From Escherichia coli (lineage in GTDB: Bacteria; Pseudomonadota; Gammaproteobacteria; Enterobacterales; Enterobacteriaceae), in the NCBI RefSeq assembly GCF_001677475.2, contig NZ_CP012497.1: DNA of 64,000 nt; one strand, given 5' to 3'. Shown piece after piece: positions 47,344-59,578 of this stretch. The translations under genes and the position numbers were made by a program. Position 1 is the first letter of the stretch. Each line of letters opens with the position of its first letter. Under the pieces are notes generated by a model that ran no database searches, was not told where the DNA came from, and was given only the letters and a program-made list of their open reading frames with translations.

Positions 47344-48375
47344 CTAATCGCCATCTTCCAGCAGGCGCACCATTGCCCCTGTTTCACTATCCAGGTTACG
47401 GATATAGTTCATGACAATATTTACGTTGGTCCAGCCACCAGCTTGCATGATCTCCGGTATTGAAACTCCGGCACGGGCCATATCTCGCGCGGCTCCGACA
47501 CGGGCACTGTGTCCAGACCAGGCCAGGTACCTCTGGCCAGAGTCATCCTTAGCCCCGTAAATCAATCGGTGAGTTGCTTCAAAAATCCCTTCCAGGGCGC
47601 GAGTTGATAGCTGGCTGGTGGGTGATGGCGAGGCAACACCATTTTTTCTGACCCGGCAAAACAAGTAGTTATTCGGATCATCAGCCACACCAGAGACAGA
47701 AATCCATCGCTCGACCAGTTTAGTTACCCCCAGGCTAAGTGCCTTCTCTACACCTGCGGTGCTAACCAGCGTTTTCGTTCTGCCAATATGGATTAACATT
47801 CTCCCACCGTCAGTACGTGAGATATCTTTAACCCTGATCCTGGCAATTTCGGCTATACGTAACAGGGTGTTATAAGCAATCCCCAGAAATGCCAGATTAC
47901 GTATATCCTGGCAGCGATCGCTATTTTCCATGAGTGAACGAACCTGGTCGAAATCAGTGCGTTCGAACGCTAGTGCCTGTTTTGCACGTTCACCGGCATC
48001 AACGTTTTCTTTTCGGATCCGCCGCATAACCAGTGAAACAGCATTGCTGTCACTTGGTCGCGGCAGCCCGGACCGACGATGAAGCATGTTTAGCTGGCCC
48101 AAATGTTGCTGGATAGTTTTTACTGCCAGACCGCGCGCCTGAAGATATAGAAGATAATCGCGAACATCTTCAGGTTCTGCGGGAAACCATTTCCGGTTAT
48201 TCAACTTGCACCATGCCGCCCATGACCGGCAAACGGACAGAAGCATTTTCCAGGTATGCTCAGAAAACGCCTGGCGATCCCTGAACATATCCATCAGGTT
48301 CTTGCGAACCTCATCACTCGTTGCATCGACCGGCAATGCAGGCAAATTTTGGTGAACGGTTAACGATTTAGTCAT
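47344..48375 (-). CDS. cre: Cre tyrosine recombinase
   Basis: 343 aa, ...LTVHQNLPALPVDATSDEVRKNLMDMFRDRQAFSEHTWKMLLSVCRSWAAWCKLNNRKWFPAEPEDVRDYLLYLQARGLAVKTIQQHLGQLNMLHRRSGLP...; matches Cre apart from N-terminal residues. Confidence 0.95.
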   Translation of the reverse strand: MTKSLTVHQNLPALPVDATSDEVRKNLMDMFRDRQAFSEHTWKMLLSVCRSWAAWCKLNNRKWFPAEPEDVRDYLLYLQARGLAVKTIQQHLGQLNMLHRRSGLPRPSDSNAVSLVMRRIRKENVDAGERAKQALAFERTDFDQVRSLMENSDRCQDIRNLAFLGIAYNTLLRIAEIARIRVKDISRTDGGRMLIHIGRTKTLVSTAGVEKALSLGVTKLVERWISVSGVADDPNNYLFCRVRKNGVASPSPTSQLSTRALEGIFEATHRLIYGAKDDSGQRYLAWSGHSARVGAARDMARAGVSIPEIMQAGGWTNVNIVMNYIRNLDSETGAMVRLLEDGD

Positions 48376-48767
48376 TTATTATGCGTAATTTTAACAGTTA
48401 AGCCTTGTTCATGAAGTATCTCATCAATAATTCGAATCACATCCCCAGGTAGATCATCGTTCTCGAAATATCTGTGATCGGGGATTTCTACAGTGATTGG
48501 AGTTGCTGCTTCATGCAAAATCCGAACAGTCTTTTTTTCTTCTTTGCATGCTGAATATTCAGCCTCTTCGATATCTTTCCAGCTTGCACCATCAAATTGC
48601 TGGTAAACCCGAGTGTACTGCATGCGGTTTCGCTTTACTTCTTCTGCTAACTCCCAAATTGCAACGGCCATAGCACGTTCATTTTCACTCGTTCCAGGGT
48701 TAGCAGCTTTTTGTTTTGCGTCCTTAAGTAAGGCGTTTACCTTGGCATCCGTCAGGCTATTAAACAT
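48372..48767 (-). CDS. Hypothetical protein upstream of cre
   Basis: 131 aa; its stop overlaps the cre start by 4 bp. Confidence 0.4.
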   Translation of the reverse strand: MFNSLTDAKVNALLKDAKQKAANPGTSENERAMAVAIWELAEEVKRNRMQYTRVYQQFDGASWKDIEEAEYSACKEEKKTVRILHEAATPITVEIPDHRYFENDDLPGDVIRIIDEILHEQGLTVKITHNK

Positions 48768-48786: not shown

Positions 48787-49008
48787 TTAAATTATTGTTT
48801 TCAGCAGAGTGTACAGGATTGGATCTGCCTTTACCTGTTTATGGTTCTCGTCATAGAAACGCCAGCGACCGCGCGTGCGTTCTATTTTCTCTTCACCGCG
48901 AGATAATGACAGTTGGTAACTATCACGCTCAAACCCTTTTGCCCGCCAGTAACCACGGTTTTTCTCAAGCTCAAGATGAGTGGACACTTTAGCAGCTGAA
49001 TATCCCAT
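48787..49008 (-). CDS. Hypothetical small basic protein
   Basis: 73-aa ORF between loxP and cre. Confidence 0.25.
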   Translation of the reverse strand: MGYSAAKVSTHLELEKNRGYWRAKGFERDSYQLSLSRGEEKIERTRGRWRFYDENHKQVKADPILYTLLKTII

Positions 49009-49197
49009 TTTTCACCTCTGATTGATTGGTGGTGCTAAGTGCGCTACGCGAAATCTGGAGCACTAACACTGCCAACATTTCGCAGATTTTACGTAGCGCA
49101 ACCTTGATCAAATGATCAAGTGATCACTATTTGACCTGATAAGGTATTGAACTGTATGGATTTACAGGTAAATTGATCATGTTCAATAACCCTTAAG

Positions 49198-49231
49198 ATA
49201 ACTTCGTATAATGTATGCTATACGAAGTTAT
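49198..49231. other. loxP site
   Basis: Exact ATAACTTCGTATA-ATGTATGC-TATACGAAGTTAT (13-bp inverted repeats, 8-bp spacer). Confidence 0.95.
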
Positions 49232-49276
49232 TAGGTCTGAAGAGGAGTTTACGTCCAGCTGCGCATAAAAAACAAG

Positions 49277-56863: not shown

Positions 56864-57064
56864 TTATCTGCTGCCCGGCATTTTCTGTTTAAGCACAACC
56901 ATTTCCTGACGGCATAACACAGCAATAGCGGTCCTGGCACCAATTTGCTTACCAACCAGGTATTGCTTTACCTCGCGGCGACTCACGCCATCAAGAAGCA
57001 TCTTTAACGCTCTACGGGACAATTTGTTGTATTTACGTGCCATTAATCTACTCCGCAGAACCAT
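56864..57064 (-). CDS. Small basic hypothetical protein (pdcA position)
   Basis: 66-aa ORF overlapping the doc 3' end. Confidence 0.3.
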
Positions 57065-57428
57065 ACAATCTACGTAACGTGGCGGCGACAGTAGATACAG
57101 ATATCTCTCCGGTCGCAGCCCCTACGGTAAGGTCTGCCAGTTCTGGTGAATCAAATACCTGCACCCCGTTACGGCGTAGAAATAGCAGCGCACTGTTTAG
57201 CGCGGTACGCTTATTGGCATCATTGAATATATGCCCTCTCGCAGTAGCCACCAGGTAGGTGGCGGAGACTTCGAAAAGGTCGGTGATCTCTTCGTAGGCA
57301 ACTCTGGCCTGAACTCTCCCGATAATGGCCTCTGCCCTACCCGGATCTGACATTCCCGGCAGGCCGCCGTAGCGGCTTATATTCGCATCATGAAGCGCAA
57401 TAAGTTCTTCCGGTGATATATGCCTCAT
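57048..57428 (-). CDS. doc: Doc toxin (Fic-fold)
   Basis: 126 aa, [25 protein letters not shown]... Confidence 0.9.
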
Positions 57429-57649
57429 TATCGGTTTACCAGTTCCTTGTTGGTGGAGTCCAGGGTGTCAAACAGGGATGCAAATTCGGCATCCAGCGCC
57501 GCTTTTTTGTAGGCTTCGAAAGTAGCCTTGCTGACAATTACTGCTGGCTCACGGCCTCTGCGAGTGATTTCAACCTCTTCCCCGGCTTCAACATTGTTGA
57601 GCACTTCAGAAAGGTTGCCGCGCGCGGTACGGAAGTTAATGGATTGCAT
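57428..57649 (-). CDS. phd: Phd antitoxin
   Basis: 73 aa, [41 protein letters not shown]...; the ORF-track start is 2 codons upstream. Confidence 0.9.
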
Positions 57650-57721
57650 AAACACCTCGTGTACTCGTTATGTGTACACAATTATAAACTTCACAGGCAT
57701 AAAGCACCAGCACTTTGCAGC

Positions 57722-58111
57722 TTAAATCACCGGACAATCATCAAATTCCCCACTTCGGGCATCATTAATGACATGAGTGATCACACCAAAAACAGCATTA
57801 CTACCCGTGTAACCATCGTCATCTACTGGTAACGCCTCTTTCTTCCCGGTGCTTAAATCCTCAAGGTGCTGACGCGGATACTTTCGGTATCTCTTTATGC
57901 GATATTCACCCTCCATAGCGCAGACAAGCAGCGAACCATCAACTGGAGTAAGCGAAGAATCAACCACCAGCAAAGCACCCTGCAATATTCCCTCACGGTG
58001 ATGACTATCAGCTGCCCTCATGAAGTAGGTCGCTGAAGGATGTCTAATTATCTGCTGATCAAGAGAAATACGGCTCTCAGCATAATCCGCCGCAGGAGAA
58101 GGGAAGCCCAT
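57722..58111 (-). CDS. humD: HumD (UmuD'-like S24 peptidase domain)
   Basis: 129 aa, S24 LexA/UmuD-like C-terminal domain. Confidence 0.8.
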   Translation of the reverse strand: MGFPSPAADYAESRISLDQQIIRHPSATYFMRAADSHHREGILQGALLVVDSSLTPVDGSLLVCAMEGEYRIKRYRKYPRQHLEDLSTGKKEALPVDDDGYTGSNAVFGVITHVINDARSGEFDDCPVI

Positions 58112-58127
58112 AATACTCGCCTCTTAA

Positions 58128-58147
58128 TACTGTATATACATACGGTA
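58128..58147. promoter_or_regulatory. LexA (SOS) box upstream of humD
   Basis: TACTGTATATACATACGGTA vs consensus TACTG(TA)5CAGTA. Confidence 0.5.
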
Positions 58148-58442
58148 TATGTTGAAGCTATATATTTTTGAACTCTATCTCTTAAAAAAGATGTTAATAA
58201 GATGCTAACTATTGAAAGGCATAAATATATACAATTCCAACAAACGTTATTTTTAACAAATTTTTTCTCTCCGTTGACTTTTGCGAAAGCCTTGTCTGGC
58301 CTAAATTGCGCGGAAGCTACTTTTTCCTTCCTGAGTTATCCACAGAGTTATGCACTTGCATGTATAACCTATACACACTATCTTAATTCGCAAGACACTG
58401 ATGTTGCGGTATTGAAGGTTCATTGGGTTAAAAATAGACATT

Positions 58443-58473
58443 AAAAAGCCCAGTTGACTAGGCTGGGCTTTTT
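58443..58473. terminator. Rho-independent terminator-like hairpin (A-run / T-run flanked)
   Basis: AAAAAGCCCAG-TTGACTA-GGCTGGGCTTTTT. Confidence 0.5.
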
Positions 58474-58773
58474 AAGAGGAAACAGAGTTTGCGGCTCTGT
58501 TCCTGAGCCATAAGTATCTGGCGACTGAATTAAGATTAACCGAATGTACTGGATTCATCAAGAAACGTTGAGTGGTCATACCAGGTAATAATGACCATTT
58601 ACTAAACATCGTTGTTCTCAAAGAAGATTTAAGTCCAGGTTTTTGGTGACTCTAAAACCTTACCTTAACTCGAAATCGTGCCGTAAGTATCTGGCGACTA
58701 CAGATATTGCAACTGCAAAGGCAAGCCCAAAGGTATTTGCAGCTAGGCGCGATAAAACTAAGTGAGACCTGTT

Positions 58774-58857
58774 ATGGTTAACTTACTGTTCAAAATCGTG
58801 CCGCCGATGTTCGCGATTATCAAAGCGATCATTGAGTACGTAAACCAGCGTCCATAA
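58774..58857 (+). CDS. Candidate 27-aa hydrophobic peptide
   Basis: ATG...TAA encoding MVNLLFKIVPPMFAIIKAIIEYVNQRP, followed by a hairpin at 58871-58897; weak SD. Confidence 0.2.
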   Translation: MVNLLFKIVPPMFAIIKAIIEYVNQRP

Positions 58858-58912
58858 CGCTAGTTGCTACAGGCCCCATCAAGAGCATGGGGCCTCTTTA
58901 TCGTACTATTGC

Positions 58913-59578
58913 TTATTTTTTACGGACTGAGTTGTTCACTGCTCTGGCAATCTTCTCCCGCAATTGCTGCGTTCCGTGGTACTGAACCGCAATATCCCTC
59001 AACTCGTTCACCAGTTCTCGAATCTGGTGATCTTTAAGCTCATTATTTGGGTGATTGGTAACAACTCTGGTTAATTCACCCTTGTCTTTTGCTCTTACGT
59101 ATGCAGCTCTTGTGCATTCGACCCATGTATTACCGCCTACATTAACTTCGTAGATTAGGCTGGACTTATCTGTCAATTCGGAACAAATACGGGCCGTGGT
59201 CTGGCAACTAGAGCATTCGCAGTTATCGCGGAAACCGTGGTCTACTGGCTTCGGTTTCACATCATCAACTTTTTCTACCCTATTGGAATTTAAATACTTC
59301 GAAGCCTTGCTATGCCAATCGCTTGTTTTAGGATCTTGTCCATCCATCAAACGCCAGGCTTCAGCGATTAACTCATAACTAGTGACTGTAGCTTCCTGCG
59401 CATCACCAACAAGCCGTGTAATCTCTCTTTCAAGCCGACCGCCTAGCTCTGTTTTAGTGCAATGTTCTGACCAATCGCCAGCCTCAAGCAGCGCGAGAAT
59501 GCTTAAAATATCGTCCAATAGAACGGTAGTATTATCGACTTCCTTCTGAAACTCACCGGCTACTGATTTATGCATCAT
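58913..59578 (-). CDS. Hypothetical late protein
   Basis: 221-aa ORF in the minus-strand late operon. Confidence 0.4.
   Translation of the reverse strand: MMHKSVAGEFQKEVDNTTVLLDDILSILALLEAGDWSEHCTKTELGGRLEREITRLVGDAQEATVTSYELIAEAWRLMDGQDPKTSDWHSKASKYLNSNRVEKVDDVKPKPVDHGFRDNCECSSCQTTARICSELTDKSSLIYEVNVGGNTWVECTRAAYVRAKDKGELTRVVTNHPNNELKDHQIRELVNELRDIAVQYHGTQQLREKIARAVNNSVRKK

Follow-up and report, generated by a model that had tools for sequence, protein, structure and literature searches.

A private base change in the LexA-like box of humD in a P1-like phage-plasmid, probably weakening both operator and promoter

The stretch of Escherichia coli DNA analysed here (64 kb, referred to as the window) was a P1-like phage-plasmid, carrying cre, loxP, coi, c1, pdcB, doc, phd, and humD. 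Its doc-phd-humD segment was 94% to 97% identical to those of P1, P7, RCS47, SJ46, and D6. The features in and around humD, with coordinates in the window, are as follows.

57048-57655, minus strand: phd-doc addiction module, directly downstream of humD as in the P1 context (Pfam PhdYeFM_antitox and Fic/DOC; P1 annotation)
57722-58111, minus strand: humD, ORF of 129 aa encoding a UmuD'-like protein
58120-58125, minus strand: Shine-Dalgarno sequence AAGAGG of humD, 8 nt before the ATG, by direct reading
58128-58147: predicted LexA (SOS) box, TACTGTATATACATACGGTA in plus-strand letters and TACCGTATGTATATACAGTA in humD-strand letters, with CCGT-N8-ACAG on the humD strand
58144: private substitution, G on the plus strand and C on the humD strand, where all relatives have A/T
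58144-58149, minus strand: predicted -10 hexamer, TATACT in relatives and TATACC in the window
58167-58172, minus strand: predicted -35 hexamer TTCAAA, mapped from a relative (locus L004) as its coordinate + 57094
58441-58475, both strands: bidirectional intrinsic terminator, a 13-nt perfect inverted repeat flanked by A- and T-runs
58871-58895: terminator following the 27-aa ORF of a candidate toxin

The product of humD matched the NCBIfam HumD equivalog NF051876 over residues 1-129 of 129 with 218.5 bits (cutoff 120), and Pfam Peptidase_S24 with 35.8 bits (cutoff 23.3, E = 7e-9), which bore out the UmuD'-like assignment made earlier from the DNA letters. The coding sequence was intact and full length, and its product differed by 2 to 3 aa from those of P1, RCS47, and a further relative, L005 (3 aa in the case of P1). 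The N-terminus read MGFPSPAADY, a start that may correspond to Gly25 of UmuD'. No umuC-like ORF was observed in the DNA adjacent to humD, the neighbours being phd-doc and a non-coding region.

Homology to P1 in megablast ended at the humD start codon, which marked a mosaic junction at 58111/58112. The humD coding sequence was of the P1 type, whereas the approximately 800 nt upstream belonged to the region found in pLF82/Cyrano-type phage-plasmids, in which humD adjoins apbC/minD. The same mosaic was present in one public plasmid, NZ_CP149562.1. The P1 genes lxr and hot were not present at the upstream position of humD in the window. An 80-aa ORF at 58202-58444, divergent from the box, was considered as a substitute for lxr and rejected as non-coding, as it contained 1-nt indels in relatives and had no Pfam match. 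In a survey of P1-like phage-plasmids, humD is given as a LexA-regulated SOS gene and humD/lxr/hot are placed in a hypervariable region (PMC9603915); thus, the upstream swap at the humD start makes the window an illustration of this hypervariability. In the reference paper, humD was followed by RT-qPCR under thermal lytic induction only, with SOS not covered.

The sequence-only reading had placed a near-consensus LexA box 17 bp upstream of humD. Its sequence and position at 58128-58147 agreed with our reading, in which 16 nt (58112-58127) separated the box from the ATG and the edge of the box was the 17th base upstream. On the humD strand, the operator was laid out as TA-CCGT-ATGTATAT-ACAG-TA, with the correct spacing, an AT-rich 8-bp spacer (ATATACAT), and TA...TA flanks as in E. 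coli LexA operators. Eighteen of the 20 positions matched TACTG(TA)5CAGTA. One mismatch fell in the tolerant spacer and the other at 58144 (A to G), where it converted the CAG triplet to CGG. The core CTGT-N8-ACAG (CTG-N10-CAG) that characterizes E. coli LexA operators was therefore broken in one half-site, which read ACGG/CCGT, whereas the other (CTGT, plus strand) was intact.

Potential operators were scored by the heterology index (HI) with a matrix built from the 18 E. coli LexA boxes of Table 4 in PMC3009722, which themselves span HI values of about 0.3 to 12.2 in this matrix; HI concepts and values are also given in a review of the SOS response (PMC6590174) and for Salmonella (PMC8072944). 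The box scored 4.25 and 5.44 in the two orientations of the asymmetric matrix and 5.58 in the symmetric one, inside the range of functional boxes, and was the lowest-HI site in the window. The classical cut-off, said to go back to Lewis in 1994 and Fernandez de Henestrosa in 2000, reportedly lies at about 12.6 to 15. The AT-rich composition of the region would favour a palindrome that had arisen by chance without relation to LexA, but none of 300 simulated 64 kb windows (first-order Markov) reached HI ≤ 5.6, and 0.007 sites were expected at HI ≤ 8; furthermore, the box is the positional homologue of an annotated LexA site of P1 and shows a distinct conservation pattern in 30 relatives (see below). 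The box was thus far beyond chance and highly non-random, and a fortuitous origin is extremely improbable.

Only one other site with HI ≤ 13 was observed in the window, at 49150-49169 (AACTGTATGGATTTACAGGT, HI 9.1), and its CTG...CAG core was intact. Located near loxP (49200-49233), it proved, when read as the reverse complement, to be identical to the LexA site that the P1 record gives at 46-65 over the P2coi promoter, and its recovery validates the HI matrix. In the P1 regions that were inspected, two LexA sites are annotated, and the scan returned the counterparts of both and no others. As a separate observation, a 131-aa ORF (48372-48767, minus strand) was located between a cra-like ORF of 73 aa (48787-49008) and cre (47344-48375); in comparison with P1, where cra and cre are adjacent, it looks inserted.

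Base 58144 accounted for 4.29 of the 5.58 HI units, and the box repaired to A at this position scored 1.29. CAG is invariant across the 36 half-sites of the 18 reference boxes, and the penalty given to an unseen base is a pseudocount ceiling, ln(36.5/0.5) = 4.29; the additive HI passes because this penalty is capped. The LexA PWM check that had been proposed together with the box was therefore passed, but in a misleading manner. Likewise, the wording near-consensus conceals which positions are mismatched. The lesson is that a pass by HI or PWM can mask a change at an invariant operator base.

All 30 relatives that were read directly (8 GenBank loci, 13 IMG/VR contigs, and 9 metagenome contigs) carried CAG. 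Their box had the form TACTGTATA(T/C)(A/G)CATACAGTA, with TACTGTATATACATACAGTA as the ancestral form. In the base-by-base table of the 21 GenBank and IMG/VR loci, variation was confined to box positions 2, 10, 11, and 20; the metagenome contigs came from a search pattern that let only positions 10, 11, and 20 vary. That CTG...CAG is retained while other positions vary indicates that the site is under selection for binding of LexA.

In the two closest relatives, 58144 was the sole difference within 86 nt, being A there and G in the window. No exact match to these 86 nt of the window was found among 80 plasmid, 113 E. coli genome, and 25 phage matches. The G form was likewise absent from the metagenome and genome collections, of which the genome collection lacked the G and A forms alike and was hence uninformative, and a scan of IMG/VR that permitted both bases gave only A. 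The A form was represented by 13 matches in IMG/VR and 9 in the metagenomes. The status of G as a singleton among the public sequences examined, and its nature as a single transition within an alternating AT-rich tract, would suit a sequencing or assembly error, in which case the true element would be the ancestral one, a strong SOS-regulated operator. However, the window differed from its closest relative at approximately 6 positions in 831 nt, 3 of them private, so that ordinary divergence explains one more SNP, and a homopolymer or indel signature was absent. An error at this base is accordingly regarded as improbable.

Besides 58144, the private SNPs (as compared with 7 relatives over the 831 nt) were located at 58476 and 58767. 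The former lay beside the terminator of a candidate small RNA, and the latter changed the Shine-Dalgarno sequence of the candidate toxin ORF from GAGG to GAGA, 6 nt before its ATG. All three private changes thus fell in predicted regulatory elements, which may be a coincidence in a feature-dense region.

A promoter scan of the humD strand in the relative L004 gave a single sigma-70 call, TTCAAA-17-TATACT (9/12), in which the -10 hexamer is formed by TA and the four opening bases of the box, such that the box overlaps the predicted -10/+1 region. At the equivalent position of the window, no humD promoter was called. The humD promoter is a prediction from a consensus scan, in which 1.6 such matches would arise by chance over the region covered. 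The upstream region of RCS47, unrelated in sequence, showed the same architecture, TTCACA-18-TATACT (10/12), whereas that of P1 gave no promoter call under the same scan rule. If the assignment is correct, base 58144 corresponds both to the T of the LexA half-site CTGT and to the last T (-7) of the -10 hexamer. Loss of the T at -7 in a -10 hexamer is strongly deleterious.

The terminator at 58441-58475, predicted from its inverted repeat and flanking runs, would insulate the humD promoter region from upstream transcription; humD would thus need a promoter within approximately 300 nt of its start. An AT-rich non-coding segment (58178-58265), which closely precedes the predicted -35 hexamer on its upstream side, was almost invariant in the relatives, whereas the adjoining 58265-58440 was variable and contained indels. 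Possibilities for the invariant segment include a UP element, a binding site, or another small RNA.

Beyond this terminator, the region 58440-58900 contained a candidate type I toxin-antitoxin locus, which looks real and is unconnected to the humD box. It consisted of an ORF for a hydrophobic peptide of 27 aa (MVNLLFKIVPPMFAIIKAIIEYVNQRP; 58774-58857, plus strand), in which 6 of the 9 changes in the divergent relative L006 were synonymous, and a candidate divergent RNA of approximately 85 to 90 nt on the minus strand, ending at a terminator at 58447-58464. Terminators were thus present on both the toxin and the small RNA transcripts, and 58454-58784 was almost invariant across the relatives. 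Owing to a 20-nt direct repeat (58507-58526 and 58680-58699), the minus-strand RNA would be complementary to the 5' UTR of the toxin. This repeat is better evidence than the duplexfold value for the two RNAs, -44.5 versus -36.5 ± 4.6 for shuffled sequences, which is uninformative.

The layout mirrors that of dinQ/agrAB in MG1655, that is, a gene for a small hydrophobic peptide with a divergent small RNA of about 85 nt and about 20 nt of complementarity. However, E. coli dinQ has a LexA box (HI 5.13), whereas the best HI in the toxin locus of the window (58148-58920) was about 20. Membership in the dinQ/agrAB family was rejected, as the match of the minus-strand RNA to Rfam AgrB was below the threshold (26.4 bits, gathering score 40, E = 0.06), pairwise alignment to agrA/agrB was weak, and neither sequence homology nor a LexA box was observed. 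Matches to Rfam Thr_leader and Betaproteobacteria_toxic_sRNA were also discarded, being driven by the terminator and far below the gathering score. The suggestion that SOS induction of humD fits with this neighbouring locus consequently found no support, as the locus has no LexA-like site and the terminator at 58441-58475 lies between the two. In addition, a promoter-like sequence, TTTACG-17-GATAAT (9/12), was located on the minus strand at 58816-58844, antisense inside the 27-aa ORF. It may be the promoter of a cis-antisense RNA or a fortuitous match (2.6 expected in the region).

With regard to LexA binding, a passage of PMC8601168 that cites Zhang 2010 describes the base pairs of CTGT-N8-ACAG as being contacted directly by the LexA recognition helix. 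The hybrid operator op408/op+ of strain SU202 was made by mutating CTGT(N)8ACAG to CCGT(N)8ACAG (PMC12430536), and is repressed only by a heterodimer of the wild-type and an altered-specificity LexA DNA-binding domain (DBD), whereas wild-type DBD dimers fail to repress it (PMC12430536, PMC8152094); these results were obtained with LexA-DBD fusions on the sulA operator, neither with full-length LexA nor with the sequence of the window. Considering these contacts and the shared form of the operator, a substantial loss of LexA affinity would be expected at the box of the window. As a caveat, the additive HI of 4.3 to 5.6 is well within the range of working E. coli boxes. Given the great strength of the ancestral box (HI 1.3), by our estimate repression could persist in part at the LexA levels of the cell even after a 10- to 100-fold loss of affinity.

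It is possible in principle that CGG is tolerated because the remainder of the box is near ideal, such that the box works as a LexA operator unchanged and humD is SOS-induced in the normal manner. This would fit HI values comparable to those of recA or sulA in the same matrix, the ideal opposite half-site, spacing, and AT-rich spacer, the existence of natural working boxes with one deviant triplet, such as dinG with TTG (PMC3009722), and the strong family-level support for LexA control. It is at odds with the invariance of the altered base in the reference half-sites and the relatives (36/36 and 30/30), with the failure of wild-type LexA DBD dimers at an operator carrying the identical change, and with the removal by the same base of the -7 T of the predicted -10 hexamer, while the low HI reflects a penalty that is capped at the pseudocount ceiling. 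Unchanged operator function is therefore considered doubtful.

Another possibility is that the substitution represents a selected operator-constitutive allele, by which HumD would be uncoupled from LexA and a UmuD'-like protein would be supplied constitutively in lysogens. The exchange is the same as that in the engineered op408 half-site (CTGT to CCGT), and the intact, full-length humD would be in line with such a role. However, a weaker -10 hexamer, to be expected from this very base, runs against a gain of expression, and the singleton shows no sign of spread. Moreover, umuC of the host remains LexA-repressed, so that HumD alone would do little. Selection for constitutive expression is thus very unlikely. 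In a wider sense, and provided that the base is real, a natural mutation of the op408/op+ type that uncouples humD from SOS and leaves HumD either constitutive or silenced is rather unlikely.

A joint weakening of operator and promoter is the explanation that we consider probable. In the relatives, a LexA dimer would occupy the 20-bp palindrome, ancestrally TACTGTATATACATACAGTA, over the -10 hexamer and the transcription start predicted for humD, equivalent to about 58137 of the window and 7 nt downstream of the hexamer, and would hold humD off until RecA-stimulated self-cleavage of LexA after DNA damage. HumD, as a ready-made UmuD' analogue, would then join the UmuC of the host for translesion synthesis. 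In the window, the private transition at 58144 (T to C on the humD strand) would have changed two elements at once, the promoter-proximal half-site from CTGT to CCGT and the predicted -10 hexamer from TATACT to TATACC. This would leave a weakened operator combined with a weakened promoter, with low transcription of humD and reduced or lost SOS inducibility. The earlier expectation that humD is SOS-induced is hence well supported for the family, by the P1 annotation, the conserved CTG...CAG, and PMC9603915, but doubtful for the copy in the window.

These findings matter little beyond annotation, since regulation of humD by LexA belongs to the textbook knowledge on P1; SOS-inducible HumD should nevertheless not be assumed for this element. 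If HumD expression affects mutagenesis in lysogens, the allele of the window would behave unlike those of its relatives. If the base is real, the G and A forms would constitute a natural allele pair that shows how a single base sets the strength of the -10 hexamer together with the occupancy by LexA.

LexA control of humD is already known, as P1 carries a site at 87545-87564 of NC_005856.1 (TACTGTTCATTTATACAGTA) annotated as "LexA binding site in the regulatory region of lxr and humD". The box of the window is its positional homologue, being a 20-bp box of the CTG-N10-CAG type on the same side of the same gene, at 16 nt from the ATG versus 19 nt in P1. However, the flanking DNA is unrelated, the spacer differs, the divergent lxr is lacking in the window, and CGG replaces CAG. 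The pLF82/Cyrano-type elements (among them OV696614 Cyrano, pRM9975-1, and NZ_CP149562.1) share 96% to 99% identity with the window over approximately 830 nt upstream of humD, together with the position of the box and the predicted promoter TTCAAA-17-TATACT, although the box is left unannotated in their records. They differ in that all have CAG and that most have humD beside apbC/minD instead of phd-doc; among these relatives, the P1 context is common to the window and NZ_CP149562.1 only.

In E. coli, the LexA box of umuDC overlaps the promoter. The umuDC operator (TACTGTATATAAAAACAGTA; PMC3009722) is likewise a strong box near a UmuD-type gene, at a comparable distance from the start codon. 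However, umuD is co-transcribed with umuC and its product needs RecA-mediated cleavage, whereas humD encodes a pre-truncated form and, according to the P1 annotation, has no umuC partner gene.

[quoted passage not shown] That operator was engineered in the sulA operator and is read by LexA-DBD fusions, whereas the box of the window is natural, is set in a stronger box, overlaps the predicted -10 hexamer, and faces full-length LexA. The mildly interesting point is this natural single-base allele, which resembles a LexA hybrid operator made by engineering and, in addition, would hit the -10 hexamer.
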